DNA of 64,000 bases from positions 3,251-67,250 of the forward strand of contig CAZVPI010000013.1 in the NCBI GenBank assembly GCA_964628035.1. The letters are read 5' to 3'. The DNA is from an uncultured Clostridia bacterium. GTDB lineage: Bacteria > Acidobacteriota > Aminicenantia > UBA2199. Positions 6,784-63,578 of this stretch are shown one piece after another (the first letter of the stretch is position 1; each line of letters opens with the position of its first letter). Under the pieces are notes generated by a model that worked only from the letters and a program-made list of their open reading frames with translations, was not told the DNA's origin and ran no database searches. Position numbers and translations under genes: made by a program.

Positions 6784-6793
6784 GAGAGGAACC

Positions 6794-12423: not shown

Positions 12424-12562
12424 TTGGCACGATAGCTAAAAAGGCCCTGTTGAAGGCATTTCCCGTGAATTTGCCAAGAAAGGGCTTCTAGGGCGGGCAA
12501 GAGACCCAGGTTGCAGGGCCAGAAAATTTCTCTGCGCAGACTACCTATAAAACAAAAACTAT

Positions 12563-12575
12563 TTGCATTCTGCAA
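12563..12575. promoter_or_regulatory. Inverted repeat TTGCA-ttc-TGCAA about 150 bp upstream of the sigma-54 promoter; candidate enhancer (UAS) for the adjacent activator.
   Basis: Seen in the AT-rich stretch 12500-12640. Position relative to the -24/-12 element is typical of NtrC-family enhancers. Confidence 0.3.
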
Positions 12576-12644
12576 CTTTTGTCTTTTGGAAACGAATATC
12601 TCAGGGGCTGGCAGATGTCGAAACGCAAAGAGTAAGTTTCGACT

Positions 12645-14066
12645 TCAGGCCTTCTTCTTGCCGCGTACCAAGCGCTTGTTGAGGGCCTGGCGGGTGATGC
12701 CCAGGAGCTGGGCGGCAATTCCCTGGTTGCCCTTTGCCTGCTCCAGCGCCCGTCGCACCAGGAATTCCTCGGCCTGCTTCAGGGTCGGCTGGCTGGCGAG
12801 GAAGGCATCGGGGGCAAGATCGGCGCCAGGGGTCCCCCCGGGGGATGTCCGGCTGGCCAGCCGGTCGCCAACGACGGCACGGAAGCTCTCCATGGATAGA
12901 ACGCCGCTACGGTGGCGGGAAACAGCATCGGCAACCATGGTCTGCAGCTCGCGGACATTCCCCGGAAAATCGTAGGCGGACAGCAACCCCAGAAGTTCGG
13001 GGGGGGGGGTTGGCACGCGCTTACGCAGCAGGCGGGCCGACTCCTGGAGGAAATGGCCCAGCAGCAAGGGGAGATCCTCCCTGCGCTCGCGCAAAGGCGG
13101 CACCGCGATAACGTGGGTGTTGAGGCGGAAATAGAGATCGTTGCGGAAGGCCCCCTGCTCGACCCGGCGTCGGAGATCATGGTTGGTCGAGCAAATGAGG
13201 CGCGCATTGGTCTTCCTCGGCTGATCCATGCCCAGTGTGTAATACTCCTTCTCTTGGATCAGGCGTAGGAGCTTGACCTGCGAGGTCGGGCTCAAGTCGC
13301 CGATCTCGTCGAGGAAAAGCGTCCCGTCCTGGGCCTGGGAGATCAGGCCCTCGCGGCTGCTTTCGGCTCCGGTGAAGGCCCCCTTTTTATGCCCGAACAG
13401 GGTGTCGGAAAACATGTTGTCATCGAGGCCGGCGACGTTCACGGCGACGAAGGGCCGCGCCGGGTCGCCGGCGAGGTGGATGGCGCGGGCGATCAGCTCC
13501 TTGCCGGTTCCGGTCTCGCCGGTGATCAGCGCCGGGAAAGGCGAAGCGGCGATGACCTCGACGTACTTGAACAGGGCCAGCATCCTGCGGCTGCCGGCGA
13601 CCAGGTGGGCGAAGGCGCCGGGCTTGGCCAAGCCGTCGGCCAGGAGGTGGCGGGTCAACATTGACACCTGGTCCTGCAGCCGGGCGATTTCCAGCATCCG
13701 CTGCAGACTGGAGACCAGGCGGCTGCGCTCCACCGGTTTGACCAGGTAGTCGGAGGCCCCCAGTTTCATGCAGTCGACTGCGGTCCCGATGTCGTCAACG
13801 CCGGTGACCATGAGGACGGGCACCTCGGGGAATTCCTGTTTGACCTGGGCCAGCAGGTCCCGGCCGGAGAGGAACGGCATGTTCACGTCGGCAAGAACAG
13901 CCTGCACCCGGTTTTCGCGAAGGAACGGCAGCACGCGGCGGCTGTCGTCCAGGGTGACAAGCGGCTCGATGCCGGCCGCGCGCAACATGCCTCCATACAA
14001 GAGCAGGACTTGGGTCTCGTCGTCGACCAGCAGCACCGGCAACTGGTCGCTTCGTTTCTCTTCCAT
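12645..14066 (-). CDS. Sigma-54-dependent response regulator (NtrC family): REC - AAA+ sigma-54 activation domain - Fis-type HTH.
   Basis: ATG at 14066 with GGGAG RBS. REC: VLLVDDE...LADVNMP. Walker A GETGTGKE. GAFTGA motif present (KKGAFTGAES), diagnostic for sigma-54 contact. C-terminal HTH QGIAAQLLGITRQALNKRL. Confidence 0.9.
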   Translation of the reverse strand: MEEKRSDQLPVLLVDDETQVLLLYGGMLRAAGIEPLVTLDDSRRVLPFLRENRVQAVLADVNMPFLSGRDLLAQVKQEFPEVPVLMVTGVDDIGTAVDCMKLGASDYLVKPVERSRLVSSLQRMLEIARLQDQVSMLTRHLLADGLAKPGAFAHLVAGSRRMLALFKYVEVIAASPFPALITGETGTGKELIARAIHLAGDPARPFVAVNVAGLDDNMFSDTLFGHKKGAFTGAESSREGLISQAQDGTLFLDEIGDLSPTSQVKLLRLIQEKEYYTLGMDQPRKTNARLICSTNHDLRRRVEQGAFRNDLYFRLNTHVIAVPPLRERREDLPLLLGHFLQESARLLRKRVPTPPPELLGLLSAYDFPGNVRELQTMVADAVSRHRSGVLSMESFRAVVGDRLASRTSPGGTPGADLAPDAFLASQPTLKQAEEFLVRRALEQAKGNQGIAAQLLGITRQALNKRLVRGKKKA

Positions 14067-14176
14067 ATCAACTCCCGTTGCCATGATACTTTTTTGCCGG
14101 GCCGCTGTCAAACGCCCCTTATCTATGCCAAAGACGGGATCCCGGAACAATGCGCCGGTCTATGAGTGGGGAAAAA

Positions 14177-14194
14177 GCACATGTGCGTTTCGCA
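14177..14194. promoter_or_regulatory. Overlapping palindromes GCACATGTGC and TGCG-ttt-CGCA in the divergent intergenic region between the activator and the membrane kinase.
   Basis: Perfect 10-bp palindrome at 14177-14186, overlapping an inverted repeat at 14184-14194. Candidate operator or autoregulatory site. Confidence 0.3.
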
Positions 14195-14235
14195 TCCCCC
14201 CGAGGCCGGCCGCCGTGATCTCCCTGGTAAAAAGG

Positions 14236-14264
14236 TTGACTTAGCCGCAAGGGCAATGATATTC
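14236..14264 (+). promoter_or_regulatory. Candidate sigma-70 promoter (TTGACT -N17- ATATTC) for the membrane kinase gene.
   Basis: TTGACT at 14236-14241, A/T-rich -10 at 14259-14264, ATG at 14282. Confidence 0.35.
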
Positions 14265-14281
14265 TGTGTATTGGGGCGTGA

Positions 14282-15895
14282 ATGAACAAAGGCTTTGTCA
14301 TGCAATTGATCTTCAATGCCTCTCTGCTGCTCTCCCTGGCCGCCCTCTATGACCTGCTCGTTCTCCGCTGGCAGAGCAGACAGTCTTTGTTGCGCCAGAT
14401 CTCGGTTGGCATTGTTGTCGGCACCGTAGGGGTGATCGTCATGTTGGCTTCCTGGAGACTGGAGCCGGGGATTATTTTCGACACCCGCTCGATCCTGCTC
14501 GGGATGTCCGGCCTTTTCTTCGGGACGGTGCCTTCTGTGACCGCTATGGTGATCACGGCCGCTTATCGAGGTCTTCTGGGCGGTGCCGCCGCCGGCATGG
14601 GGATCGCGGTCATCCTCGCCTCCGGAGCCATCGGCATGGCCTGGAGGTATCGCAGCCGGCGACGTCTCGCCGCTATCACCTGGCATGAGCTCCTAGGTAT
14701 CGGGATGATCATCCATCTGGTGATGCTGACGTGCACCCTCTTTCTCCCCGGCCCCATCCGCTGGCGCGTGCTGCAGAATACAGCCCTGCCGGTGCTGGTG
14801 ATCTACCCCGCCGTGACCGCCATGCTCGGCAAGCTGATGGCCGGGCATCTGAAGAGGGAGATCACCAGCCAGCAGCTTCGCGAGAGCGAGGCGAAATTCC
14901 AGAACCTGGCCACCGTGTCACCGGTGGGGATCTTCCGAACCGATGCCGACGGCCGGACCACCTACGTGAATCCGATGTGGTGCGAGATCTCCGGCTTGGA
15001 CGCCGACGCCGCCCTGGGCGACGGCTGGCTGCAGGCGGTCCACCCGTCCGACCGGGAACTGCTGCGCAGGAACTGGGAGGATGCCGCCCGGGCGCACAGG
15101 CCATCCATGGCCGATTACCGTTTCCTGCATGCCGACAGGAAAGTCGTCTGGGTGATGGGCCGGGCAACTCCGGAAAAGGACAGCATGGGCCAGGTTACGG
15201 GATATGTAGGGACGATCACCGACATCAGCGAGCGGAAACAAGCCGAGGAAATCGTCCGCACCTCACTGAAAGAAAAGGAGATCCTGCTGAAGGAGGTCCA
15301 TCACCGTGTCAAGAACAACCTGATGACCATCATCGGCCTGATTAAGATGCAGAATGAAAAGACGGGGGGATCCCCCGAGAATACGCTGCTTCTGGAGCTG
15401 GAGGGGAGGATACGCTCCATGGCCATGATCCATGAAAGCCTGTACAAGTCCGACAACCTGGCCAGGATCGATCTGCGGAACTACATCAAGGACATGGTCC
15501 TGCACATCCAGGCCCAATTTAAGACGGCATACAATATCCGCCTGGAGATGCGTGCCGTGGGCATCGACGTCGGCCTGGACATCGCGGTTCCCTATGGATT
15601 GATCCTGAACGAGTTGATCACCAATGCCTTCAAGCACGCCTTTCCGGATGACCGCGTCGCCGAGGGCGACGGCGCGCCCGAGGTGAAAATCATCACCTCC
15701 GCCCAGGACGGCATGCTGATCCTTACCGTGGCCGACAACGGCGTAGGATTTCCGGTCAGCGGGGATCTAGGGGAAACGCAGACCCTGGGCCTCAACCTTG
15801 TCCGCATGTTGAGCCAGCAGCTCCGGGGCCGCGTGGAAAGCATCGGGAAAACCGGGACAGTCATCCGCGTGCAATTCCCCCTGCCTGTGAAATAG
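14282..15895 (+). CDS. Membrane sensor histidine kinase: N-terminal multi-TM domain (about 5-6 helices) - PAS - HisKA_2 - HATPase_c.
   Basis: Hydrophobic N-terminal 190 aa. PAS block (VGIFRTDADGRTTYVNPMW...). H-box EVHHRVKNNLMTIIGLIKMQ. ATPase motifs (LNELITNAFKHAF, DNGVGFP, TLGLNLV). Divergent from the sigma-54 activator gene. Alternative start at 14300 (MQLIF). Confidence 0.8.
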   Translation: MNKGFVMQLIFNASLLLSLAALYDLLVLRWQSRQSLLRQISVGIVVGTVGVIVMLASWRLEPGIIFDTRSILLGMSGLFFGTVPSVTAMVITAAYRGLLGGAAAGMGIAVILASGAIGMAWRYRSRRRLAAITWHELLGIGMIIHLVMLTCTLFLPGPIRWRVLQNTALPVLVIYPAVTAMLGKLMAGHLKREITSQQLRESEAKFQNLATVSPVGIFRTDADGRTTYVNPMWCEISGLDADAALGDGWLQAVHPSDRELLRRNWEDAARAHRPSMADYRFLHADRKVVWVMGRATPEKDSMGQVTGYVGTITDISERKQAEEIVRTSLKEKEILLKEVHHRVKNNLMTIIGLIKMQNEKTGGSPENTLLLELEGRIRSMAMIHESLYKSDNLARIDLRNYIKDMVLHIQAQFKTAYNIRLEMRAVGIDVGLDIAVPYGLILNELITNAFKHAFPDDRVAEGDGAPEVKIITSAQDGMLILTVADNGVGFPVSGDLGETQTLGLNLVRMLSQQLRGRVESIGKTGTVIRVQFPLPVK

Positions 15896-16092
15896 TCTAT
15901 TAATTTCCCGTCTGGATCGGCGACCAGGAAGCAGAGTATTCTGATGCGGCGGAACATTAAACTGTTTTTCGCGCTCCTTTACGCGATTTGCCACTCCACA
16001 ACCGGAAATGATAAAATCTTATCGTACGACCGCCACAGGCCGGAAAGAGCCGCCCGCCGCAGCAACCGAGTTTTGCCGGCGCAGGAGGGATC

Positions 16093-16497
16093 ATGTACGT
16101 GTTCGACCGCATGGACGAGAAGCTGGTCCGGGCGGTGATCGAGACCATCCCCGCCGAGATCACCGTCATCGACGCCAACGACGAGGTGGTGGCCTGGAAC
16201 AAGGGGGACACGCGCCTGTTCCACCGCCCGCAGAGCAGCATGGGGCTGAATTTCCGCAAGTGCCACCCGGCGACCAGCCTGGGCAAGGTGGAGCAGATCG
16301 TGGCCGAGATGAAGGCCGGCGACCGCGACAAGGCGCGCTTCTGGATCCAGGCCAAGGTCGGCGCTGAGCGCCACCTGGTGCTGATCGAGTTTTTCGCCCT
16401 GCGCGGCGAGGGCGGCGAGTACCTCGGCTGCCTGGAGGTCACGCAGGACCTGGAAGAGGCGCGGCGTCTCGAGGGCGAGCGGCGGCTGCTCGATTGA
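16093..16497 (+). CDS. Small single-domain PAS protein (134 aa) with a conserved Cys-His-Pro motif; paralog of 58789..59130.
   Basis: AGGAGGGA RBS. PAS-like ETIPAEITVIDANDEVVAWNKG...FRKCHPATS...GEYLGCLEVTQDL. Aligns with the second small PAS protein, including the CHP and G..[VL]E[VF] positions. Confidence 0.7.
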   Translation: MYVFDRMDEKLVRAVIETIPAEITVIDANDEVVAWNKGDTRLFHRPQSSMGLNFRKCHPATSLGKVEQIVAEMKAGDRDKARFWIQAKVGAERHLVLIEFFALRGEGGEYLGCLEVTQDLEEARRLEGERRLLD

Positions 16498-16523
16498 GCC
16501 CGCAGAGGCAAAGCGGGGATCTC

Positions 16524-17312
16524 ATGAAGACGGGCATGATCGCCAGGGTGACGCTGCTGGCCCTCCTTTTCGGAAGTCTGATCGGCGCCGGCAGGGAAAG
16601 GGCCGCCGGGCCGGCCGCCAACGGCCTGTGGCGCAAGGCGGTCGAGATCTACCGCCGCAACAGCGACTGGTATCCAGGCCGGGTGGCCATCCTGTCGGAG
16701 ATGCTGAACCGCCGCGGCGAGCCCTATTCGGTGACCGAAATGTACTTCACCCTGCGCCTCGACAACCAGGGCAAGATCCAGGCCGACCTGGAGCGGGCGC
16801 TGAAGAACGGCGAGGACACGACCGAGAAGGTGCGCTCCAAGGTGACCATCCGCGCCCCCGAGGAAGGAATGGAGCCCGGCGACGACAACACCTTCTCCGT
16901 TTCCCTCTCCGACAGCCCGTTCGACCCCGAGCGCCAGCACGACGTGACCGTCAGCGCCGCTCCGGAAAGGGTGCCATTGTTCGGCTGCCGCTGCAGACGC
17001 TTCGATTTCACCTACCGCACGCGCATCGTGCGCAAGGGCGAGCCGGTGGACCTGACGTGGCGCGGCATGGCCTGGCTGGAAGAAGGAAGCGGCATGCCGG
17101 TCAAGCTGGAGTTCACCCTCGATCCCCTGCCCAAGCTGCTGCGCAGCCTGTGGAGCATCTACCTCTTCGACACGGCGAGTCCCGAGCGCTGGGTGGTGAA
17201 CAAGGTCTCCCTCACCGGCCACGGCGGCTTCCTCTTCATCATCAAGCGCTTCCGCACCACCACCACCTTCAGCGACTACCGCCTGGCCCCCGCGGCACAG
17301 GCGTCCGAATGA
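16524..17312 (+). CDS. Hypothetical secreted protein (signal peptide), translationally coupled to arfB.
   Basis: Starts MKTGMIARVTLLALLFGSLIGAG. Its stop TGA (17310-17312) overlaps the arfB ATG (17309-17311). The large antisense ORF 15957..17222 is rejected. Confidence 0.55.
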   Translation: MKTGMIARVTLLALLFGSLIGAGRERAAGPAANGLWRKAVEIYRRNSDWYPGRVAILSEMLNRRGEPYSVTEMYFTLRLDNQGKIQADLERALKNGEDTTEKVRSKVTIRAPEEGMEPGDDNTFSVSLSDSPFDPERQHDVTVSAAPERVPLFGCRCRRFDFTYRTRIVRKGEPVDLTWRGMAWLEEGSGMPVKLEFTLDPLPKLLRSLWSIYLFDTASPERWVVNKVSLTGHGGFLFIIKRFRTTTTFSDYRLAPAAQASE

Positions 17313-19350: not shown

Positions 19351-19405
19351 GTAGCAGCGGGCACTAAAACGGACTCTTTTCCTTACGATTGCCTTTTTCC
19401 TTTCG
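19351..19405 (+). repeat. CU-rich 3'-UTR element, copy A (GGGCACT...ACTCTTTTCCTT...TGCCTTTTTCCTTTC), immediately downstream of the 17814..19319 gene.
   Basis: Shares GGGCACT, a 12-mer ACTCTTTTCCTT and a 14-mer TGCCTTTTTCCTTT, in the same order and spacing, with the reverse complement of 29222-29285. Confidence 0.55.
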
Positions 19406-19549
19406 CGTGCCACCGTCAGCATGAAGCTCGATGAGTTTCTGTGGGCGTGTTCGTGATGGTGGGTGCAATGAGCACTGGATGGAGCGAACCCATCTCAAAG
19501 GATTTATTTCTTCCATTACCACAATCATGATCCGTTTTTTCGGCTGAGC

Positions 19550-25334: not shown

Positions 25335-26147
25335 TCAGCGGACCACGTCGGGGAAGAAGAGCGGGGCGCCGAAGCGCTCGCGGCCGAAATCACGGATGAT
25401 GGCCTGCCCGGCGGCCGAGCGGATGTAGGCGGCGAATTTCTTGGCCAGCTCCGCCTTCACCCAGGGGAAGCGCCGCGGCGAGACCACGATCACCGAATAG
25501 GGATTGAAGAGATCGGCATCGCCCTCGACCACGGCCGCCAGGGGCGCGCTCTCCTTGCGGTGCGACAGCCAGGTGGCGCGGTCGACCAGGCAATAGGCCA
25601 GCTTTTCGACGGCGATGCGCAGGGTGGATTCCATGCCGCCGCCGCTCTCCAGGTACCAGGGGCCGCCGGGGGCGACGCCCGCCTGCCGCCACAACCGCAG
25701 CTCCTTCTTGTGCGTGCCCGAGTCGTCGCCCCGGGAGACGAAGGGCGCGGCAACGGCGGCGATGCGCCCCAGGGCAACGGCCGCCTTCTGCCCCCTGGCC
25801 GCGGCCGGATCGCCTGCCGGCCCGACGAGCAGGAAATCGTTGTGCATCACGTCGAGCCGTTCCAGCCCGTAGCCCTCGGCCACGAATGTCTCCTCGGCCT
25901 CCCGGTCGTGGACCAGCAGCACGTCGGCGTTGCCGTCGCGGGCCAGGCGCATGGCCTGGCCGGTGCCGACGGCGATGATCTTGACGGCGCAGCCGTGCAT
26001 TCTCTCAAAGGGAGGGATCAGGGCGTCGAACAGGCCCGAATCCAGGGTGGACGTGGTCGAGGCCAGGGTCAGCGTCCCGGCGGCGCCGAGCGGCGCGGCC
26101 GCAACGATCCCCAGCAGGGTGCCTAGAATGAGAGAAGTCAGGCGCAT
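25335..26147 (-). CDS. tupA: Periplasmic substrate-binding protein of a tungstate-type ABC transporter (TupA-like).
   Basis: ATG at 26147 with AAGGAG RBS. Signal peptide. LASTTSTLDSGLFDAL resembles the TTTS..DSGL anion-binding motif of TupA. Confidence 0.75.
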   Translation of the reverse strand: MRLTSLILGTLLGIVAAAPLGAAGTLTLASTTSTLDSGLFDALIPPFERMHGCAVKIIAVGTGQAMRLARDGNADVLLVHDREAEETFVAEGYGLERLDVMHNDFLLVGPAGDPAAARGQKAAVALGRIAAVAAPFVSRGDDSGTHKKELRLWRQAGVAPGGPWYLESGGGMESTLRIAVEKLAYCLVDRATWLSHRKESAPLAAVVEGDADLFNPYSVIVVSPRRFPWVKAELAKKFAAYIRSAAGQAIIRDFGRERFGAPLFFPDVVR

Positions 26148-26493
26148 CAAGAACTCCTTTCCGCCAGCCGCCCCTGCCAGGGATGCTCGTGCCGCCAACC
26201 GGCCTGGCTGTCATGGCGGACAAAATGGACCCGCAGGTCGGCCTGGCTCTCGTAGGGGACGAAAAAAACCCGGACATCGGCCTCGCTCTCGGTTTTCACG
26301 AAGTGCCAGAGCTCGTCGCGGCCGCGGGCCTGGCTGCCGTGGCGCACGCGGCGCACGCACAAGTCGGCCTGGCTTTCGTAGCGGACCACGAAAACCTTGA
26401 CATCGGCCCGGCTCTCGACCTCGACGGTGCAGACCTCGGCGGCCGCCAGCGGCGCGGCCGCCAGCGCCAGCAGGAGCGCTGCCGCCGGCCCCC

Positions 26494-26497
<4 letters not shown>
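26147..26497 (-). CDS. Small secreted protein built from 4-5 tandem 13-residue repeats (ES.AD[VL].V..V.[YH]).
   Basis: Signal peptide MRGPAAALLLALAAAPLAAA followed by ESRADVKVFVVRY / ESQADLCVRRVRH / ESEADVRVFFVPY / ESQADLRVHFVRH / DSQAGWRHEHPW. Start overlaps the purM stop (ATGA) and its stop overlaps the tupA start (TGATG). Confidence 0.6.
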
Positions 26498-29095: not shown

Positions 29096-29134
29096 GCGCC
29101 GCCTGAGCGAGCGAACCCGAATCGATCTGCAGGG

Positions 29135-29161
29135 GAGGGGCGAAAGCCCCTCTTTTTTTTT
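29135..29161 (+). terminator. Rho-independent terminator: GAGGGGC-GAAA-GCCCCTC stem-loop followed by T9.
   Basis: Perfect 7-bp GC-rich stem with a GAAA tetraloop at 29135-29152, then nine T residues 29153-29161, about 40 nt after the 28460..29095 stop. Flanked by the direct repeat CGATCTGCAG (29121-29130 and 29176-29185). Confidence 0.7.
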
Positions 29162-29221
29162 AGAGAAAAAATTCCGATCTGCAGTGACCCATGAAGCTCA
29201 CCGGCTTTCGCGCTGAGAAAA

Positions 29222-29285
29222 GCCATCGAAAGGTAAAAGGAAAAAGGCAAAAGCAAGGAAAAGAGTTCGCTGCAGTGCCCGTCAC
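29222..29285 (-). repeat. CU-rich 3'-UTR element, copy B (inverted relative to copy A), in the 3' region of murB.
   Basis: Reverse complement reads GGGCACTGCAGCGAACTCTTTTCCTTGCTTTTGCCTTTTTCCTTTTACCTTTCG, matching copy A at 19351-19405. Confidence 0.55.
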
Positions 29286-54963: not shown

Positions 54964-56247
54964 TTACAGGACGCTGTCGTCCAGCTGGGACTTGATCTTG
55001 TCTATTTCTTCCTTGATGATCTTTTCGGCCAGGGGCGGCACGATCTCCCACAGCAGCTCGCGGATGGACTGGTTCAGCCGGCTCTCCAGCTTGTCGGTCA
55101 TCTCGAAGCGCTGGGGCGCCGGCGGCTTGGCCGGCGGTTCCGGGCGGCTCTCCCGCTTGGTCAGGTGGCTGAGGCGCGCCAGTTCGTCCTGGGGCGAGAG
55201 GACATCGCCCCGGTGCCGGTCCTTCTCCTGGGTCTTGTCCGCGGGCAGGTCCAGGCTGATCTCCATCTCGCCCACGGGCGACGGCGGGAAAAGGTCGCCG
55301 GCGGGGCGCCCCCCCGGACCGGCGAAGACGGTCGACGCCGGGGCCCCCAGGTCGGTCTGCTCGAATTCCAGGGAGAGCTTGTCGGTGGCGGGCATTTCCA
55401 GCGGCGGCTTCAAAAGGTCATCCGCGGCGTCTTCGCCGGCCATCTCCAGGAAGCGGTCGTGGAACTCGTCGGACACGTCGCGGGGCGCGGAGGCCACCGC
55501 CGCGGCTGCGGCCGGCGCCGGGGGCTCCAGCTCGTACTCGAGCGGGGACGCAGGCTCGCTGGCCGGCGGAGCGGAGCGGATCTCCTCGAAGGGCGGCTCC
55601 TCATCGAAGGGATTCTTGAGCGGCTCCTCGCTTTCCTGGGGCATCAGGTTGTCCTTGGCGGGCTGGGTCTGGGTGATCTCCTCCGAGGGCAGGATCTCGT
55701 CGCGATCGGGGACGGCCGCGGCCGCCGGGCGCTCGAAGGCGGGCGGCGCCTCCATCTCGCTGCGGATGTCCGAGAAGCTGATGTCCTCGCTTTCGGGCAT
55801 TTCCGTCTCGATCTCCGGGAAATCCTCCGGGAAGGTCGTCGGCCCCTCGCCGGCGGTTTCGGCCGGCGCCGCCTCCTGGTTGATGATCCTCATGACGGCG
55901 GCGACCAGGGCGTTGGAGTCGAAGGGCTTGGTGACGAGGTCCTCGTAGCGCAGGCCCTTGATCATCTCGCTGTCCACGGGCTCGAAGCTGCCTTTCATCA
56001 GGAATACCCGGCAGGAACGCAGGGAGGGCGTCTCGTTGACGAAGCGGCAGACGTCGTAGCCGCTGGTCTCGGGCAGCTTGACGTCGACGATCACCACGGC
56101 GGGATTGAGCTGCAGCAGCTTTTCCTTGATGCCGGAGCCGTTCTCGAAGCTGCGCACCTCGATGGTGTCGATTTCCGAGAACGACAGCTCGATGATGCGG
56201 CGGATTGTATAGCTGTTGTCAGCCAGAACAATCACTTTTTTGCTCAT
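54964..56247 (-). CDS. Receiver (REC) domain protein with a long acidic, Pro/Glu-rich linker and a C-terminal helical segment.
   Basis: GAGGAGGG RBS. REC-like N-terminus ([16 protein letters not shown]...[16 protein letters not shown]...LVTKPF). About 250 aa of low-complexity PE-rich sequence. C-terminal [33 protein letters not shown]. Confidence 0.65.
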
Positions 56248-56320
56248 GCTAGCCCTCCTCGAATCGTCCCATCTCCGCTACTTTTTATCACTTTTTCAAT
56301 GATAATGTCAAGCGTCCTCA

Positions 56321-56350
56321 TTGACAAATCGTTTTTTTTGGGCGAAAATG
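56321..56350 (+). promoter_or_regulatory. Candidate sigma-70 promoter TTGACA -N17- GAAAAT directly abutting the ATG of the B12-binding gene (leaderless candidate).
   Basis: TTGACA at 56321-56326, T-rich spacer, -10-like GAAAAT at 56344-56349, ATG at 56359, no SD. Confidence 0.35.
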
Positions 56351-56358
56351 GGGCCAAC

Positions 56359-56748
56359 ATGCACAGGATAAAGGTCTTAATCGCCAAACCCGGGCTGGAC
56401 GGGCACGACCGTGGCGCCAAGATCGTGGCCAAGTACCTCCGCGACGCCGGCATGGAGGTCATCTACACCGGCCTGCGCCAGTCCCCCGAGACGATCGTCA
56501 ATACCGCGATCCAGGAGGACGTTTCCATCATCGGCCTGAGCATCCTCTCCGGGGCCCACCTCCAGCTGTGCCGCAAGATCATGGCCGTTTACCGCGAGAA
56601 GGATGTCGCGCCGCCGCCGATGTTCCTGGGCGGCATCATTCCCGCCGCCGACCTCGCCGAGCTGAAACAGATCGGCATCCGCGAAGTGTTCCCCCCGGGC
56701 ACGCCCCTGGAGCGCATCGCCGCCAGCGTGCGCGAAATCGCCGGCTGA
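56359..56748 (+). CDS. Stand-alone cobalamin (B12)-binding domain protein (methylmalonyl-CoA mutase C-terminal domain-like).
   Basis: [33 protein letters not shown]...[11 protein letters not shown] matches the DxHxxG B12-binding Rossmann motif. 129 aa. Confidence 0.75.
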
Positions 56749-56810
56749 ATGGACGCCCGGGTTGACAAGCCGCGCCGCCTGGCATACAATGGGGTGATCC
56801 GGACAGCATC

Positions 56811-57743
56811 ATGGCGCTGAAACACGACAAGAAGGTCCGCAAGTACTCGGTCATCATCGTGTCCGACGCCACCGCGACGAACAAGGAATTCACCGTCTCC
56901 TCCAAGCTGATCCGCAACGCCCTGCTGGGATTCTCCTCGCTGATGGTCTTCTTCGGCTTCATCCTGTTCTCCTACCTGAGCATGACCCTGGACGAGCAGA
57001 AGATGCGGCGCCTGGAGCTCGACTCCCGGCAGAAGCACCGGCAGATCAGCGAGATGTCCTCCACCATCGAGCTGCTCAACGACCGCCTGCGCAAGATGGA
57101 AATCTACAAGGAGAGGATCATGGTGGCCACCGGGCTGACCTCGCCGCTGGCCCTGCGTGAAGTCGGCAGCGGCGGGCCGGCCGTCAGTGTGGAAGGCGGC
57201 TTCGCCGCCCCGGCGCCCGTTCTCCCCGGCGCCCCATCCCTGAAAGACGGGCGGCCCTCTCCGGCCGACGTCCGCGACAAGGCGCTGAAGATCGAGGAAT
57301 CCCTCAAGACGGTGGAGAAATACGTCAACCAGCAGAAGCTGCAGCTGGCCGCCACCCCGGCCATCTGGCCCACGCGCGGCTACCTGTCCGGGGCCTTCGG
57401 CAACCGCATCCATCCCTTCACCGGGCGCAACGAGTTCCACGGCGCCATCGACATCGCCACCCAGCTGGGCAACAAGGTCATCGCCCCTGCCGACGGCGTC
57501 GTGCTGGTGGCCGAAACGCGCGATTATTACGGCAAGATGATCATCCTCGACCACGGCTTCGGCTACACCACCCGCTACGGCCACCTCTCCGGCTACAACG
57601 TCAGGGAGGGCCAGCGCATCAAGCGCTTCGACGTCATCGGCTTCGTGGGCACCACCGGCCGCAGCAACGGCCCCCACCTGCACTACGAGGTCCGCTATTA
57701 CGACAAGCCGGTGAACCCCATCGACTTCATCCTGGACGACTGA
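56811..57743 (+). CDS. M23-family metallopeptidase (LytM / EnvC-type) with an N-terminal TM anchor and coiled coil.
   Basis: TM FSSLMVFFGFILFSYL. Coiled-coil linker. Catalytic motifs HGAIDIA, HLHYEV and an ...LDHG segment. Confidence 0.85.
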   Translation: MALKHDKKVRKYSVIIVSDATATNKEFTVSSKLIRNALLGFSSLMVFFGFILFSYLSMTLDEQKMRRLELDSRQKHRQISEMSSTIELLNDRLRKMEIYKERIMVATGLTSPLALREVGSGGPAVSVEGGFAAPAPVLPGAPSLKDGRPSPADVRDKALKIEESLKTVEKYVNQQKLQLAATPAIWPTRGYLSGAFGNRIHPFTGRNEFHGAIDIATQLGNKVIAPADGVVLVAETRDYYGKMIILDHGFGYTTRYGHLSGYNVREGQRIKRFDVIGFVGTTGRSNGPHLHYEVRYYDKPVNPIDFILDD

Positions 57744-57909
57744 CCGGCAGCCGGCGAATTTTCCCCTGCGCCTTGACTTGATTTTCCGTTTTGGATTCCT
57801 TATAATCGCAGGCGATGAGCTACACGCTGCCGGGCACGTTTCCACGATGCGCGCGAAGAAATTCGCCGCCGCCAGCGGCCACGCAGACAATATTTTTAGG
57901 AGGAGTTTC

Positions 57910-58605
57910 ATGAAAAAAGCATTGGTTCTAGCCGCCTTGCTGTTCCTGATCGTCATCACCACGTCCTGCCAGAAGCCGGAGGAAATCACGATCTCCAAAT
58001 ACTTCCAGGCCATGAAGGCCAAGGACCGCGACACCATGGCCGCCATGGCCGCCGAGCCCTTCGCCGTGGAGTTCAAGTCCTGGAAGCTTCTTTCCAGCGA
58101 CGAGCCGGTCAGCGAGGAGTTCGGCCTGCCCAAGATGATCGAGGAGATGAACGCCGCCCGCAAAAAGAAGGACGACCAGGTGCTGATGGTGCGCGACAAG
58201 AGAGACCTGCTGGACCAGCTGAAGACCAAGCTGAGCGAAACGCGGGGAAGCCGGGCCAAGGCGGACGTGCAGAAGGAGATCGCCGCCATGGAGGCCGAGG
58301 TGGAGACCGAGACCGCCAACTACAAGCGCGACCAGGCCAACTACACCCAGGTGAAGACCCAGGTGGAGAACGAGAAAAAGATGGTCGCCCTCTCCACCAA
58401 CATCGAGCAGAACCAGGAACTGCTCAACGGCAAGACCGTCACCACCAAGGCCCACGTCACCATCGACGGCGCCGAGGGTTCCAAGGAATACGTGTTCACG
58501 CTCCGCAAGTACGAGCTGATCAATCCCGTGACCAACAAGGTCCACTCCAACCGCTACATCATCCTGAAGATCCAGCCCGCGGAAGAGGCCGGCGCCGCGG
58601 AATAA
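57910..58605 (+). CDS. Hypothetical lipoprotein with a coiled-coil segment.
   Basis: AGGAGGAG RBS. Lipobox MKKALVLAALLFLIVITTSCQ. ATG at 57910, in frame with the track ORF 57778..58605. Confidence 0.6.
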   Translation: MKKALVLAALLFLIVITTSCQKPEEITISKYFQAMKAKDRDTMAAMAAEPFAVEFKSWKLLSSDEPVSEEFGLPKMIEEMNAARKKKDDQVLMVRDKRDLLDQLKTKLSETRGSRAKADVQKEIAAMEAEVETETANYKRDQANYTQVKTQVENEKKMVALSTNIEQNQELLNGKTVTTKAHVTIDGAEGSKEYVFTLRKYELINPVTNKVHSNRYIILKIQPAEEAGAAE

Positions 58606-58788
58606 GCCCCGGCCTCCCCTCTTCCCGCGTCCCCTGCGGCGCGGGGGCCGTTGACGGCTCCCGCGCCTTTTTCCATTCCCAAGGCGGCGCATCGTGCCTG
58701 TTCACGGGCGGGGGGCGGGCATGCATCGGGGATGCTTGTTTCTCTTGCTCCGGCCTGACGCCTGACATTTCTGGAAGGGGAAGAACCC

Positions 58789-59130
58789 ATGAACCAACTG
58801 CTTTGGGCGGAAAGCGTGGATGTGGCCATGACCGTCTGCGACCGCGAGGGGATCGTCCTGTACATGAATGACAGGGCCGCGGCCGCCTTCGCCCCCGAGG
58901 GGGGCAAGGCTCTGGTGGGGACATGCCTGATGCCCTGCCACCCCGAGCCGGCGCGGCGCAGGATCCAGGAGATCCTGGCCACGCGGCGGGCCAACACCTA
59001 CACCATCGAGAAGAACGGGGTGAGGAAGCTCATCCACCAGGCGCCCTGGTTCGAGAACGGCGAGCTGGGCGGGCTGGTGGAGTTTTCCATCGTCCTGCCC
59101 GCGGAGATGCCGCATTACAAAAGGACCTAG
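58789..59130 (+). CDS. Small single-domain PAS protein (113 aa) with a conserved Cys-His-Pro motif; paralog of 16093..16497.
   Basis: AMTVCDREGIVLYMNDRAAAAF...CLMPCHPEPA...GGLVEFSIVL aligns with the 16093 protein. Its stop TAG (59128-59130) is the first unit of the heptamer array. Confidence 0.65.
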   Translation: MNQLLWAESVDVAMTVCDREGIVLYMNDRAAAAFAPEGGKALVGTCLMPCHPEPARRRIQEILATRRANTYTIEKNGVRKLIHQAPWFENGELGGLVEFSIVLPAEMPHYKRT

Positions 59131-59366
59131 ACGTTAGACGTCAGACGTTAGCAGGAAACTCAATGAGATCAGACGTTAGACGTCAGACGTTAGCAGGAAA
59201 AAGCCCTTTAAGAGAACTCGGGTGAAAGATCTGAGGCGCTGGCTGAGGACGACGGATGCCGGAAAACAAACATCCGACATCAGTCGCCAGACGTCAGACG
59301 TTAGCCGGAAACGAAATGAGATCAGACGTTAGACGCTAGACGTTAGACGTTAGTGGATAGCAAGAA
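59128..59366 (+). repeat. Heptamer (AGACGTY)n tandem arrays organised as a higher-order repeat: two identical 30-mers AGACGTTAGACGTCAGACGTTAGCAGGAAA (59129-59158, 59171-59200) plus arrays at 59289-59312 and 59324-59366.
   Basis: Direct reading of 59121-59370. Each array is followed by an AGCMGGAAA(C) A-rich motif and/or AATGAGATC. Confidence 0.8.
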
Positions 59367-59373
59367 GCATATC

Positions 59374-59709
59374 TGTCCAAAATAACTTCAAACCTGGGAA
59401 GACTGAAGCACCAAGTTCCAAGCACCAAATTCCAAACAAGCACCAAGCCCCAATGACCCAATGACCAAAACAAAGGCCATATAGGTTCAAGTTCTATACA
59501 CCTAAAGTGCGTTTTGGCCTCCTTTTGGGTCACAACGTCCCCGCCAGGGGATTGGAATTTGGAACTTGGAATTTTTTTGGGATTTGATGCTTGGTGCTTG
59601 GAATGTTAGTCTTACCAGCATCAGACCTCGCCGCAAAAAATACTGTGGCTAGCCCCGAAACCCTTTACAGTGCTAGTTGTCTGTCAAAAAGGCAATTTAT
59701 TTTGGACAG
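59374..59709. repeat. About 336-bp low-GC segment bounded by a perfect 13-bp inverted repeat (CTGTCCAAAATAA / TTATTTTGGACAG); contains long imperfect inverted repeats (59409-59438 vs 59553-59608) and a hairpin at 59681-59709. MITE-like or structured-RNA-like.
   Basis: The words TTCCAAGCACCAA / TTGGTGCTTGGAA and the AATGACCCAATGACCAAA direct repeat are visible in the sequence. GC content is far below flanking DNA. Confidence 0.5.
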
Positions 59710-59768
59710 CAATGAGCAAGAAGAATCCCTTAGGAGCTTGAATTGCCCTTTTTCTTGCTAACGTCTGA

Positions 59769-59954
59769 CTACTTCTTTTTGATCGTTGAGATCTTGAACG
59801 GCACGTACAGCGGGCAAAAGCCGAGCAGGGCCGTGACCAGCGGGATCAGCGCGAAAAGCCCCCACCAGGTCTGGAAATAGATGCCCAGGGCGATGCCGGC
59901 GAGGCCGATGACGCCCCGGACGATGCGGTCCGTACTTCCCATGTTGCGCTTCAT
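59769..59954 (-). CDS. DUF2892-like small inner-membrane protein (61 aa), embedded in the repeat island.
   Basis: MKRNMGSTDRIVRGVIGLAGIALGIYFQTWWGLFALIPLVTALLGFCPLY resembles the YgaP-associated DUF2892 fold. Its stop TAG is followed directly by TCAGACGTTAGCAAGAAAAAG. Confidence 0.55.
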   Translation of the reverse strand: MKRNMGSTDRIVRGVIGLAGIALGIYFQTWWGLFALIPLVTALLGFCPLYVPFKISTIKKK

Positions 59955-60043
59955 GTCGCACCTCCACGAACCCGCACATTAGATGCCAAATGCGGGATGG
60001 ATGCAAGGCAAAAAGGCATGCCGATCCCCGTACAGGGCTTTTT

Positions 60044-60080
60044 TTCTTGCTAATGTCTAACGTCTAACGTCTACCGTCTG
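60044..60080 (-). repeat. Inverted (minus-strand) heptamer array AGACGGT AGACGTT AGACGTT AGACATT AGCAAGAAAAAAA that includes the stop codon of the Ser/Thr kinase gene.
   Basis: Reverse complement of 60044-60080. The last codons TCA GAC GGT AGA CGT TAG of the kinase are built from the repeat. Confidence 0.75.
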
Positions 60081-63000
60081 AGTTCGGATAGAGCTTGTCC
60101 AGCTCGGCCGCGATCTCGGCCAGCGTCGGCCTCTTCGCCGGATCCTTGTCGATCATGGCCGCGATCAACGCCTCCAGCGCCGGCGGCGTCTCCGGGTTGA
60201 TCTCCCGCGCCGGCACCGGGTAGGTCTCGAGGATGCGGTGGATCACCTCGCCGGTCGCCTCGGACCAGAACGGCTTGGCCGCGGTCAGCATCTCGTAGAG
60301 GATGATGCCGGCCGAATAGATGTCGCCGGCGACCGACGAGACGCCCCGCTGGATGCGCTCGGGAGGCAGGTAGCGGACGGTGCCCATGACCACTCCCGAC
60401 ATCGTCAGCCGCGACTGGGCAGGGGTGATGGCCAGTCCGAAGTCGAGGAGCTTGACGAGCGGCCGGCCGCCGCCGCCGTCCAGAACCATGATGTTTTCGG
60501 GCTTCAGGTCGCGGTGCAGGATCTCCCGGCCGTGGATGGCCTTCAGGGCCTCTACGACCTGGCGCATGACCACGACGGCCTCCTGCGGCCGGAAGCGCCC
60601 GCGCTCGCGTATGAGGCGGGCCAGCGTGGCGCCCGACAGCAGCTCCATGGCGATGTAGAAGCAGTCGTCGCTCTCGCCGCGCTCGAAGACGCGCACGATG
60701 TGCGGGTGGTCCAGGCCGGCGGTGATCTGCGACTCGTGGCGGAAGCGGCGCTTCTGGGCCTCGTCGTGGAAATTCTCCTCCTTCAGCAGCTTGAGGGCCA
60801 CCACCCGTTTCTCGCCCAGCAGGTCCTGGGCCTTGTAGACCGTGGCCATGCCGCCGCTGCCGATCGTTTCCAGGATCTTGTAGTGGCCGACCTGCGTCTT
60901 CTTTTTCCAGAATTTCACGGCGCGCAGGTATTTCCGCAGCAGCTGCCAGGAGAAGGCCGACAGCGCGGCGAAGGCCAGGGCGGCCAGGGAGAGGAACCAC
61001 CAGGTCTGGTGAACGAAGGGCCGCAGGACGAAGAGGAACTCGGCGCCGGACCGGTTCCACACGCCGTCGGCGTTGGCGGCGATGACGCGGAAGCGGTAGC
61101 GGCCGGGCCGCAGGTCGTTGTAGAAGGCCTGGCGCCGGTTGCCGGCGTCGACCCAGTCCCGTTCATAGCCCTCCAGCTTGTAGCGGAAGACGATCTTGTC
61201 GGAGCGGACGAGGCTCAGGGCGGTGTAGGCGAACTCGAGCTTGCGGCGGCCGGCAGGAAGCGAACAGGGGCCGGCCGCGCCGGCGCCCGGCAGGGGCAGG
61301 CTGCGGCCGTCGGCCAGGGCCCGCTCGATGCGCACCGCCGGCACGCGCCCATTGCGGCGGATGCGGGCGGGATCGATGCCGGCCACGCCGGCGAGGTTGG
61401 CGAACCACAACCTCCCCTGCTCGTCGCGCCAGCCGGCCGGGTCGCCGTAGTTGCAGATCCGGCTGGCCATGCCGTCGGTCTCGTCAAAAAGGCGGCCGCT
61501 CACCCTGGGTCTGCGGCCGAAAGCCGCCGCCTCAAGATCGCCGGCCGCGACGCGGAACAGGCCGCGCTCGCTGCTCAGCCACAAGTGGCCCAGGCCGTCG
61601 GCGAGGATGGCGTAGATCCGGCTGTCGAACAGCCCCTGCCCGGCCGACACCGAACCCCAGCGGCCCTGGCGGAGGACCTTGATCCCCTGATGCGTGCCGA
61701 TCCAGAGGCCGCCTCCGCCATCATCGAAAAAAGACGTCACATGACAACCGGCAAGGAAGGGCTCGGCGACGAACCGGGCCCCGGGCCCGGGCGCCATCAC
61801 CGCCATGCCGTTCTCGCAACCGGCCCAGATGCCGCCGCCGGGGCCGGCGTGCAGCGCCGAGACGAAGTTCCCGGGCAGACCGTCGGCCGCGGAGTAGGCG
61901 GTGACGTTTCCGCCGCTCAGGCAGTGCACGCCCATGCCCCAGGTGCCGATCCACAGCCTTCCCTGCCGGTCGCTGGCGAGGCAGCGCACCTCGACATCGT
62001 GGGCGACGCCGGGAAGCCCCCGCCGCTCGACGCGCCCGCGGCGCAGGCGCATCAGTCCCGCGGAGGTTCCCAGCCACAGCGCGCCGCCGGGGCCGGCCTC
62101 CAGGGCGTAGACCGCGTGGTCGCGGTCCGCCCCCGGCAGCCGCAGCCCGTCGCAGCGCCCGCCGCGGATCCGGTTCAGGGTCCCGCCGCTGCCGCCCACC
62201 CAGAGCATCCCGTTCCCGTCGCCATGGAGGCAGCGGAACTTGTTGCCGACCAATCCTTCGCGGTCGGTGAAGGAGGTGATCTTCTCGTCGCGGATCTGGA
62301 TCAATCCCCCGTCCAGGGCCCCCACCCACAGCGAGCCCTCGGCGTCCTCGCACAGGGCGTACACCCAGTCGCTCCCCAGCCCCCGGTTTTTGCCGATGGC
62401 CTGCCAGTCGCTCCGGTTCCAGCGGTACAGCCCGCTTTCGCTGCCCACCCAAAGGTTGCCGTCGCGGTCCTCGACCAGCGAAGTAACCAGGGAGCGGAAA
62501 CCTCCCGGAGGCGCGATCTCCTGCCAGCTTCCTTCGCGGGTGCGGGCCAGCCCGTCCTCACAGCCCAGCCACAGCCAGCCGTCACGGCCGGGGAGGATGG
62601 CATAGATGTCGCCGCCCTTCAGCCCGGAGGCGGGCAGGACGCGGTTCCATTCGTCGCCTTCCAGCCGCAACAGCCCATCCCCGGCCACACTGGCCAGGAG
62701 CCGACCGGAGCGGTCCTTGGCCAGGGTCAGAATCGCAGCGCCGCCCAAGCCGGGATCCCGGGCCAGCTCGCCGCCAGCGCCGGCAAGGCGGCGGAAGAGC
62801 CCGGCCGAGGTCCCGACCCAAAGATCTCCGCGGCCGTCCTCGGTGATGCAGGAGAACGAGATGCGCGAAACCTCCGGGGCAAGCGCATGCGAGCGAAAGA
62901 CGCCCTGCTCCAGGCTGAGCAGCTTTCCGCGCATGGTGCCGATCCAGAGGACACCGCGGCGGTCGAAGTAGAGGTTGCCGACAAGATTGTCCTGGAAAAC

Positions 63001-63258
63001 GGGAGTGTTGCCGCTGTGGAAAATGTCGAAGTTCGCCCCGTCGAAGCGCACCAGCCCCTCGGCCGTGCCCAGCCACAGGAAGCCGGAACGGTCCTGGGCG
63101 ATCGCCATGACCGAGCTGTTGGGCAGTCCCCTCTCGCTCTTCCAGACGTTGACGGCGTACTGGGTGATCCTTTTTTCGGGATCCAGCCCTGCCAGCGTCC
63201 CCGCCTGCAGCAGCAGCCAGGCAAGAGCCAGCGCCGGGACCGCCCCGTTCCGCCTCAT
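60064..63258 (-). CDS. Transmembrane Ser/Thr protein kinase with a large periplasmic sensor region made of Reg_prop (two-component regulator propeller) repeats and a Y_Y_Y domain.
   Basis: Signal peptide. At least ten W.GT..GL-type propeller repeats. Y_Y_Y segment FRYKLEGYERDWVDAGNRRQAFYNDLRPGRYRFRVIAANADGVW. TM helix WWFLSLAALAFAALSAFSW. Hanks kinase subdomains GSGGMATVYKA, ALKLL, HRDLKPENIM, DFGLA, GTVRYLPPE. Confidence 0.85.
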   Translation of the reverse strand: MRRNGAVPALALAWLLLQAGTLAGLDPEKRITQYAVNVWKSERGLPNSSVMAIAQDRSGFLWLGTAEGLVRFDGANFDIFHSGNTPVFQDNLVGNLYFDRRGVLWIGTMRGKLLSLEQGVFRSHALAPEVSRISFSCITEDGRGDLWVGTSAGLFRRLAGAGGELARDPGLGGAAILTLAKDRSGRLLASVAGDGLLRLEGDEWNRVLPASGLKGGDIYAILPGRDGWLWLGCEDGLARTREGSWQEIAPPGGFRSLVTSLVEDRDGNLWVGSESGLYRWNRSDWQAIGKNRGLGSDWVYALCEDAEGSLWVGALDGGLIQIRDEKITSFTDREGLVGNKFRCLHGDGNGMLWVGGSGGTLNRIRGGRCDGLRLPGADRDHAVYALEAGPGGALWLGTSAGLMRLRRGRVERRGLPGVAHDVEVRCLASDRQGRLWIGTWGMGVHCLSGGNVTAYSAADGLPGNFVSALHAGPGGGIWAGCENGMAVMAPGPGARFVAEPFLAGCHVTSFFDDGGGGLWIGTHQGIKVLRQGRWGSVSAGQGLFDSRIYAILADGLGHLWLSSERGLFRVAAGDLEAAAFGRRPRVSGRLFDETDGMASRICNYGDPAGWRDEQGRLWFANLAGVAGIDPARIRRNGRVPAVRIERALADGRSLPLPGAGAAGPCSLPAGRRKLEFAYTALSLVRSDKIVFRYKLEGYERDWVDAGNRRQAFYNDLRPGRYRFRVIAANADGVWNRSGAEFLFVLRPFVHQTWWFLSLAALAFAALSAFSWQLLRKYLRAVKFWKKKTQVGHYKILETIGSGGMATVYKAQDLLGEKRVVALKLLKEENFHDEAQKRRFRHESQITAGLDHPHIVRVFERGESDDCFYIAMELLSGATLARLIRERGRFRPQEAVVVMRQVVEALKAIHGREILHRDLKPENIMVLDGGGGRPLVKLLDFGLAITPAQSRLTMSGVVMGTVRYLPPERIQRGVSSVAGDIYSAGIILYEMLTAAKPFWSEATGEVIHRILETYPVPAREINPETPPALEALIAAMIDKDPAKRPTLAEIAAELDKLYPNSDGRR

Positions 63259-63271
63259 GGCAGGCGATGCC

Positions 63272-63469
63272 TTACATGGCCGGGATCGTGGAACGGCAGA
63301 CCCTCAGCTCGAGCATGCCCTCCTCGCCGGCGAAGATCTTCTCCAGCCTGGCCAGGGCCCGGGAGGCTTCGGCGTACTTCTTGCCCTTGCGCTTCTCCGC
63401 TGGAACGGAATCGAGATAGGCGCGCATCTTGGCCAGGAGCAGATTGACATTGGCTTTCTTGATATCCAT
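63272..63469 (-). CDS. Small hypothetical protein (65 aa) just upstream of, and probably co-transcribed with, the Ser/Thr kinase.
   Basis: GAGGAGG RBS. 13-nt gap to the kinase start. No recognisable domain. Confidence 0.4.
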   Translation of the reverse strand: MDIKKANVNLLLAKMRAYLDSVPAEKRKGKKYAEASRALARLEKIFAGEEGMLELRVCRSTIPAM

Positions 63470-63578
63470 CCATTACCTCCTCGAACAGCATGTGCCCGAA
63501 TTGTACGCGAAAAGAAGAGCGAACTCAACGCGCGGCCCTCTTGCCCGCGGCGGCGTGGACGGCTACAATGGCGGCGGC

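Follow-up and report, generated by a model that had tools for sequence, protein, structure and literature searches.

Heptameric simple sequence repeats (SSRs) are over-represented in bacterial genomes (Rehm et al., 2015, PMC4692102). In Xanthomonas, about 185 arrays of the unit GGGAATC are found per genome, about 90% of them intergenic; they lie at a mean of 28 nt after the upstream open reading frame (ORF), preferentially on its coding strand and sometimes overlapping its stop, and form convergent inverted pairs in 70-75 cases (PMC4692102). Here, we describe a locus of this kind at positions 59128-60080 of a 64,000-nucleotide stretch, hereafter the window, of contig CAZVPI010000013.1 (GenBank assembly GCA_964628035.1), which comes from an uncultured Clostridia bacterium whose GTDB lineage is Acidobacteriota; Aminicenantia; UBA2199. 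Tandem arrays of the heptamer AGACGTY stand there between the convergent 3' ends of a PAS gene and a Ser/Thr kinase gene, and we propose that this island grew by expansion from one palindromic repeat. The repeat belongs to a lineage-specific, dispersed family of Aminicenantes/Acidobacteria-type metagenome-assembled genomes (MAGs), each arm being an AGACGTY tandem array that ends in AGCAAGARA. We hold with good confidence the structural and evolutionary account, which comprises the family, a compact ancestral state, three expansion events and stops taken over by creeping arrays; taken together with the function discussed below, the whole explanation appears reasonably probable.

With the Xanthomonas GGGAATC and Nostoc GGGGAYT repeats, the family shares tandem 7-nt units (typically three to four), a mostly intergenic and stop-proximal position on the coding strand, a frequent pairing of two inverted, convergent arrays that can fold into stem-loops, and unit numbers that vary between close relatives. 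Their units differ in being G-rich, quadruplex-forming and stop-free, and their lineages differ as well; no conserved non-repeat anchor has been described for them, whereas the window family has one, and its unit carries TAG/TAA so that the arrays supply stops. The cyanobacterial short tandemly repeated repetitive (STRR) sequences are classical heptamer families. TAACTGA repeats, which occur in Beggiatoaceae, Cyanobacteria and Bacteroidetes, stop all frames and thereby limit overlap with coding ends, and both they and the STRRs resemble the window family as dispersed tandem heptamers in non-coding DNA, with several unit families per genome (MacGregor, PMC4679880). In a Beggiatoaceae strain, however, TAACTGA repeats are direct rather than inverted, and most of them stand immediately 5' of start codons; STRR units differ in sequence, and neither type has the AGCAAGARA anchor or, as a rule, the palindromic layout.

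A third point of comparison is provided by REP, BIME and REPIN sequences, the short, conserved, imperfect palindromic extragenic repeats of 3' untranslated regions (UTRs) and of spaces between convergent genes that are familiar from the work of Higgins, Gilson, Bertels and Rainey. REPs are reportedly found within 15 nt of stop codons, according to Liang, Rudd and Deutscher in 2015. In Proteobacteria these sequences resemble the window family in their inverted pairs that form long hairpins, their sequence conservation and their dispensable copies. On the other hand, REP arms are not tandem heptamers, and REPINs possess a conserved spacer and a cognate RAYT transposase, whereas the loops of the window family are unrelated between copies. 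RAYTs (IS200/IS605-like Y1 transposases) are usually single-copy, and none was among the Pfam matches in the window. The repeat sequence itself was not found in the literature searched, a searchable paper library. The family is new in unit, anchor and lineage, while its kind, stop-proximal heptamer repeats that often form inverted pairs, is already known; it is not a new biological principle as it stands, and the initial annotation, which was made from the letters alone and recognized no named family here, put the matter too strongly.

Positions 58800-60400 were read directly, and Tandem Repeats Finder (TRF) was run for tandem repeats; its period-7 arrays are the same as those found by direct reading. 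Six AGACGTY arrays lie within 59128-60080, each followed 3' in its own sense by an anchor AGCMRGARR (AGCAGGAAA, AGCCGGAAA, AGCAAGAAG or AGCAAGAAA): four on the plus strand (59129-59149, 59171-59191, 59282-59302 and 59324-59358) and two on the minus strand, of which that at 60052-60079 is an array proper and that at 59760-59768 a remnant of 9 nt. Allowing one mismatch at most, a 14-mer made of two AGACGTY units has 11 matches in the window, all confined to the island, against 0.04 expected from shuffles, so the heptamer arrays noticed at the outset are real. Also present are the two perfect 30-mers 42 bp apart that had been read there (59129-59158 and 59171-59200). The initial annotation had put the island at roughly 45% GC in a background of roughly 68%; the drop is borne out, with 49.5% for 59128-60080, 46% for the non-coding stretch 59131-59768 within it and 66.9% for the window overall. 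Its description of the island as almost entirely repeat has to be given up, since the island contains a real DUF2892 gene with an 86-nt upstream region.

Read from the left, array A1 (59129-59158, plus strand; three units and the anchor AGCAGGAAA) forms the outer left arm of the putative ancestral palindrome. Its counterpart, the outer right arm at 60041-60079 on the minus strand, is made up of the anchor AGCAAGAAAAA and four inverted units, and an inverted-repeat search found the two outer arms, 59128-59158 and 60043-60073, to be 90% complementary over 31 nt. Array A2 (59171-59200, plus strand) likewise has three units and AGCAGGAAA, being the perfect 30-nt copy of A1. Array A3 (59282-59311, plus strand), with the units AGTCGCC, AGACGTC and AGACGTT and the anchor AGCCGGAAA, starts the second copy of a 153-bp duplication, and array A4 (59324-59367, plus strand) consists of four units, a variant unit AGTGGAT and the anchor AGCAAGAAG. 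Together with this anchor, A4 is the left arm of a hairpin on the DUF2892 side, the remainder of which occupies 59715-59768 (minus strand): a second copy of AGCAAGAAG (59715-59723) next to the loop, the right anchor TTTTTCTTGCT (59749-59759) and the inverted array remnant AACGTCTGA, equivalent to 1.3 units (59760-59768, minus strand).

The arrays reach into the flanking genes. On the left, the single-domain PAS_4 gene (58789-59130, plus strand, 113 aa; gene calls and Pfam) ends in a TAG at 59128-59130 that is made jointly with the first array unit. On the right, the Reg_prop/Y_Y_Y/Pkinase gene (60064-63258, minus strand, 1064 aa; Pfam) has its TAG at 60064-60066 inside the array, which also encodes its last five codons (SDGRR). 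Both stops are canonical array TAGs. A third gene, the YgaP-like_TM (DUF2892) minigene (59769-59954, minus strand, 61 aa; Pfam), ends in a TAG within a degenerate unit, AGTAGTC, 2 nt short of the array remnant, so that the proposal of three genes ending exactly in a heptamer TAG holds for PAS and the kinase and falls short for DUF2892. Upstream of this minigene, the 86 nt at 59955-60040 (minus strand) are not repeat-derived, and a pattern scan gave no convincing promoter or terminator match in them.

The ancestry of the island is best seen in a related locus. Loci fetched for comparison from genomes and metagenome contigs carry L numbers here, and a tblastx comparison of the window with all of them found the orthologous neighbourhood in two metagenome contigs, L149 and L142, with the same PAS and kinase genes in convergent arrangement. 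The PAS ortholog of L149 is 64.6% identical at the amino acid level, is also 113 aa long and stops with TAG at the corresponding codon, after which come eight array units as compared with three in the window. The opposite array contains the end of the kinase ortholog (53% identity), whose tail is ARRKTLDVRR* instead of SDGRR*, ten array-encoded residues against five. Between the two stops, L149 holds one element in 101 nt (an array, AGCAAGAGA, a 31-nt loop, TCTCTTGCT and the opposite array), whereas the same stops are 933 nt apart in the window. This difference, together with the outer arms that are still 90% complementary, indicates that the island is an expansion of one convergent-gene hairpin. 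The arrays may lengthen and shorten by slippage. Since each TTAGACG unit supplies TAG on one strand and TAA on the other, an array that creeps into the last codons merely re-defines the stop, which makes genes appear to end in the array. The locus is a concrete case of repeat arrays claiming the stops and final few codons of adjoining genes, which bears on gene-end annotation in MAGs.

A second element tells of turnover at the other end of the PAS gene. Upstream of it, the window has a relic (58741-58770, plus strand) in which the right anchor TCTCTTGCT is followed by the degenerate, GC-enriched units CCGGCCT, GACGCCT and GACATTT; it aligns with an intact element of L149 (440-565) that occupies the same position and ends 22 nt before the PAS start codon. 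An intact copy in one lineage and a decayed one in the other show that individual copies are dispensable.

The compact orthologous state allows the growth from about 100 nt to 933 nt to be reconstructed as three events: duplication, gene capture and insertion of a miniature inverted-repeat transposable element (MITE). The first is a 153-bp duplication of the left arm doublet; 59129-59193 and 59282-59346, each an arm-spacer-arm doublet, are 88% identical. By the second, the DUF2892 minigene would have been acquired between two direct copies of the right arm, probably through recombination between repeat copies: the minigene and its 86-nt upstream region are absent from the L149 locus, and the cassette is flanked by two right-arm copies of 21 nt in direct orientation, 59749-59769 and 60041-60061, with 90% identity. 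The third is a 347-bp MITE-like insertion, accompanied by a 9-bp target duplication and itself carrying a hairpin of a second heptamer family. As a separate observation on this segment, two further contigs (L005 and L006) represent a diverged relative over 59588-63500, with only about 50-60% nucleotide identity in the N-terminal part of the kinase, 92-98% over the kinase domain and 100% over 59588-60064, which covers DUF2892 and the island. Such a mosaic suggests that the segment with the island recently recombined or passed between lineages, or else that the contig is chimeric.

The signature of the third event is well preserved. The insertion spans 59368-59714, has no defined strand, and is delimited by the inverted ends CATATCTGTCCAAAATAA (59368-59385) and TTATTTTGGACAGCAATG (59697-59714), which match at 16 of 18 positions; the sequence of its terminal inverted repeat (TIR) is CATWKCTGTCCAAAATAA. 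On either side stands a perfect 9-bp direct repeat, AGCAAGAAG, at 59359-59367 and 59715-59723, of which the left copy is at the same time the anchor of A4. The 336-bp segment between perfect 13-bp inverted repeats (CTGTCCAAAATAA, 59374-59386 and 59697-59709), which had been pointed out by the initial annotation, is present and constitutes the core of the insertion. When 59368-59723 is removed, the sequence becomes colinear with the intact elements L116, L141, L112 and L142, including the variant unit beside the anchor, a comparison made with paralogous copies and not with an orthologous empty site. The insertion folds as one long hairpin (z = -8.4 and -6.9), and its small ORFs gave no Pfam match. 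In these respects it resembles MITEs such as Correia, ERIC, RUP and the cyanobacterial Nezha, the likeness being confined to the insertion: small and non-coding, with TIRs (16/18), a 9-bp duplication and a long hairpin, it interrupts sequence that is intact in homologous copies. No cognate transposase was found for it.

Nested within the insertion at 59399-59613, again with strand undefined, is a hairpin of the second heptamer family (AAGCACC/AATTCCA against TTGGAAT/TTGGTGC) with the ends AAGACTGAAG...TTAGTCTT. Homologs of this hairpin occur in L125 (7190-7380, Aminicenantes UBA6072), L077 (2965-3035, UBA2190) and L143. Independent short-read assemblies from several samples break at about 59430, 59551 and 59591, all within the inner hairpin, which suggests that k-mers of the insertion recur elsewhere. 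The takeover of sequence by such arrays bears on assembly breaks as well. The contigs that break are the Logan contigs L007-L010, L014, L016, L017, L019 and L020, and repeats fragment MAG assemblies at this place.

Beyond the window, a scan for (AGACGTY)3 in one genome per species (GTDB genomes) gave more than 119 loci in many phyla, mostly generic heptamer repeats and often beside arrays of quite different heptamers. The anchor and the full palindromic architecture are present in a subset (L025, L066, L077, L086, L092, L112 and L116), whose hosts are Candidatus Aminicenantes UBA6072 and UBA2190, an Acidobacteria MAG and a MAG of 60-65% GC labelled Clostridia. The layout runs from a gene stop through (AGACGTY)n, AGCMRGARA, a loop and TYTCTTGCT to (RACGTCT)n, with the common anchor AGCAAGARA; the loops measure 23-120 nt and are unrelated in sequence. 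A metagenome scan for array plus anchor added 15 further loci (L141-L154 show the architecture), from which copy number cannot be derived because they are only 15 and exclude the window's own contigs. In total, about 20 related elements are found elsewhere in genomes and metagenome contigs, and related MAGs have two to three loci each among the matches listed. The distance from an element to the flanking stops is about 30 nt, and its neighbours are in most cases convergent genes. These elements and the orthologous locus with the same junctions substantiate the early suggestion of an intergenic repeat family tied to gene 3' ends.

The stems of the family are 30-40 bp long with about 43% GC, and minimum free energies (MFEs) range from -21 kcal/mol, for the window's own element minus the insertion, to -69. 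Pairing holds for 85.7% of the cells of 14 arm pairs, whereas slid controls reach 23-49%. Because the arms are inverted around the loop, either strand can fold into the 30-40 bp hairpin. The unit sequences drift (AGACATT, AGTGGTC, CAGTGAC). It was also observed that the anchor AGCAAGAAA stands 3' of other heptamer arrays (CAGTGAC, GTGTCAG) in L143, L151, L077 and L148, and that intergenic regions of the Aminicenantes type place different heptamer arrays side by side (GGACAGA, ACGAATC, AGTGATA, GAGGGGY). The shared anchor suggests that the window, too, derives from an Aminicenantia-like organism, of a lineage that has been little studied. An AGACGTY array of seven units in L125 (1383-1560, Aminicenantes UBA6072), which has a short inverted partner, is separated by about 50 nt from an apparent tRNA gene on the opposite strand, and this shows that the elements are not restricted to the ends of protein-coding genes.

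The (AGACGTY)3 repeat was also considered by itself as a conserved element across phyla, and this was rejected: permuted heptamers are as common in viral contigs, and neighbouring arrays use other units. The viral contigs have (AGACGTY)3 at six loci, all of them generic SSRs, and two permuted units at 4 and 22. The AGACGTY unit itself is probably not special.

The position of such arrays relative to genes was followed in 126 arrays listed from the genome scan (L021-L139, many phyla), with an ORF caller based on third-codon-position GC (GC3) that reproduces the Joint Genome Institute (JGI) calls in the window. Among these, a gene 3' end lies within 35 nt of the array in 78 cases and a 5' start in 12. 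For AGACGTT-rich arrays that abut a 3' end, 41 are in gene sense and 10 in antisense; counted by genome among the matches listed, the ratio is 30 to 5 (p = 2e-5), so the gene-sense orientation that had been read in the window extends beyond it. A stop codon falls inside the array in 19 of the 41 sense-abutting AGACGTT-rich arrays. Since both strands of the AGACGTT unit carry stops, ORF truncation alone does not explain the bias. AGACGTC-rich arrays show the opposite tendency (8 sense and 19 antisense), which is partly trivial because TGA occurs only on the antisense strand. In Flavobacteriaceae, a gene stop is typically followed by the array and then by an intrinsic terminator (e.g., L044, L047, L101, L102, L115).

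One rival explanation takes the stops themselves as the selected feature: the arrays would be translational stop cassettes, kept to halt ribosomes in every frame at gene ends, for instance so that ribosomes which read through or have shifted frame do not reach the hairpin or the convergent gene. Two genes of the window stop at an in-array TAG and a third stops 2 nt before an array remnant, the PAS and kinase junctions are kept in orthologs at 53-65% identity, and the sense bias and the 19 in-array stops count in favour of this reading. Yet the six-frame property claimed at the outset, although arithmetically right for the two longest arrays (59324-59358 and 60052-60079), fails for the other three of five: all three sense frames are covered in those two only, and three-unit arrays containing a TCAGACG unit have stops in one or two sense frames. 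AGACGTC-rich arrays, without any sense stop, are equally common among the arrays listed; elements also stand directly upstream of start codons; and one copy has decayed in the window lineage without replacement. Moreover, the stop-free GGGAATC repeats of Xanthomonas have the same stop-proximal, coding-strand placement (PMC4692102), and the stop property is for this reason better read as a by-product. We consider selected stop cassettes unlikely.

As regards function, the expanded palindrome that we favour would most likely act, by analogy with REP/BIME or STRR sequences, as a transcribed 3'-UTR hairpin, or it may be a purely selfish or neutral repeat; a dedicated translational stop device is less likely. 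A 3'-end barrier or an mRNA-end structure would give a weak benefit with which the loss of single copies is compatible. Termination of transcription fits less well. An intrinsic terminator is a short GC-rich stem with a U-tract, and the long stems of the family, at about 43% GC, differ from it. The MFE by strand in co-directional contexts is mixed, the sense strand being favoured in L025, L116 and L141 and the opposite strand in L112.

Several observations weigh against the proposed explanation. No intrinsic terminator in the island was convincing in a pattern scan, whose three weak sites (1.9 expected) lie at no gene end, and a T-run follows the right arm in only some family members. In L149 and L025/L116, the element ends 13-22 nt before the start codon of the next gene, which makes efficient termination unlikely as a general role. 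In the 14 arm pairs, compensatory changes are no more frequent than in shuffles, the observed value being below them; the arms are conserved as sequence, and they give no demonstration of selection on an RNA structure. Of the array-anchor family, the 64 kb contain just the island locus and one relic. Among the fetched loci there is no other full copy of the 347-bp insertion, the homologs covering the inner hairpin only. Finally, the AGACGTT sense bias (30 versus 5 genomes) is left unexplained by a purely neutral model.

The lack of compensatory change in the arms also bears on a structured small RNA (sRNA), which the initial annotation had offered as one reading and which is not supported. Rfam gave nothing at the gathering threshold across the whole window, and the best permissive matches by E-value in 55500-61000 were far below threshold; a window scan likewise found no tRNA or tmRNA genes.

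Conservation of the arms as sequence rather than structure would suit an RNA-protein landing pad, in which a ring-shaped or multimeric protein of the HutP or TRAP type would bind RNA at the period-7 UAG repeats of the 3' UTR, so that the upstream gene would respond to a signal at the level of termination, stability or translation. By inspection, (UAGACGU)3 fits the HutP recognition motif UAGNNNNUAGNNNNUAG (PMC2425495), and the gene-sense orientation points the same way. However, Pfam gave no match to the HutP family in the window and no other candidate protein was found there; UCAGACG units lack UAG, the units drift freely as described above, viral contigs contain permuted heptamers as often as AGACGTY, and pairing of the arrays with their inverted partners would hide single-stranded UAGs. 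The landing pad is accordingly a doubtful reading, to which we give little weight. A broader version, which we also find improbable, would make stop-bearing sense arrays a functional 3'-end module across phyla, with period-7 UAG repeats at the stop codon. The repeats might recruit an RNA-binding factor by a HutP/TRAP-like logic, or they might force termination and ribosome release within a long stem; the upstream gene would thereby be tuned in its expression or decay. If this were true, the Aminicenantes palindromes with AGCAAGARA would be one elaborated form of the module, and the sense bias of 30 to 5, like the junction kept at 53-65% identity, would reflect selection and not tolerance.

Short tandem repeats also call to mind iterons, and the initial annotation had considered a replication origin or partition site. 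Integron-type sites, with DUF2892 as the gene cassette between its 21-nt direct repeats, belong to the same line of thought. The attC core is GTTRRRY and its inverse core RYYYAAC, with the inverse core preceding the core. Written as GTTAGAC, the unit fits the former by inspection, and GTCTAAC fits the latter; the order in the window, however, is core and then inverse core on each strand, the reverse of attC. Iterons and parS are repeats of 17-22 bp beside rep or par genes, against only 7 bp here. Pfam scans covered the genes near the island and, up to 48.5 kb, ORFs no shorter than 99 aa, with 48.6-54.9 kb covered by precomputed labels of identical JGI contigs, and in these the 64-kb window has no Rep, Par (ParA/B), integrase or transposase domain. 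The neighbourhood is core chromosome, comprising the dcw cluster (mraZ-mraW-ftsI-mur-ftsW-ftsA-ftsZ), valyl-tRNA synthetase (ValRS) and ribonucleotide reductase (RNR). The core-chromosome setting together with the absence of these domains removes the support for iteron, origin, partition and integron readings, and copies are moreover dispersed singly, mostly between convergent chromosomal genes, in several genomes. This group of readings is largely refuted, and we regard it as extremely improbable.

Heptamer SSRs are prone to slippage, and the differences between orthologs described above, three against eight units after PAS and kinase tails of five against ten residues, could be taken for a contingency locus in which slippage would make the flanking signalling genes phase-variable in C-terminus or expression. 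Within the species, however, the 1-kb island is base-for-base identical in every spanning assembly, from at least five samples, which argues against a phase-variable locus. The arrays sit at or after the stops, and since stops recur every unit or two, a change in copy number alters at most a few C-terminal residues. A contingency locus is thus very unlikely.

The wider surroundings of the island are rich in signalling genes. The window contains many PAS and response-regulator genes, and an M23 peptidase is among the neighbours of the island. A dense PAS-rich signalling cluster occupies 1-17300, upstream of the dcw cell-division cluster (about 29-48.5 kb), and includes a multi-PAS hybrid histidine kinase, response-regulator-PAS proteins, a sigma-54 activator and a 5TMR-LYT kinase; the PAS minigene beside the island is one of many PAS paralogs in the window. 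Other repeats were seen elsewhere in the window. At 26200-26420, inside the ORF at 26147-26497 (minus strand, DUF6150), a 39-nt periodic repeat CGGCCTGGCTCTCGTAGCGGAC...AAAAACCCGxACAT with about 77% identity between copies probably encodes a repeated peptide motif. A strong terminator-like hairpin with a T10 run (29133-29161, in the region 29130-29270) is followed by a purine-rich AAAGGNA stretch, and an 18-nt near-duplicate, TTTTCCTTACGAGTGCCT, lies at 19377-19411 (region 19360-19410); both are unrelated to the heptamer family.

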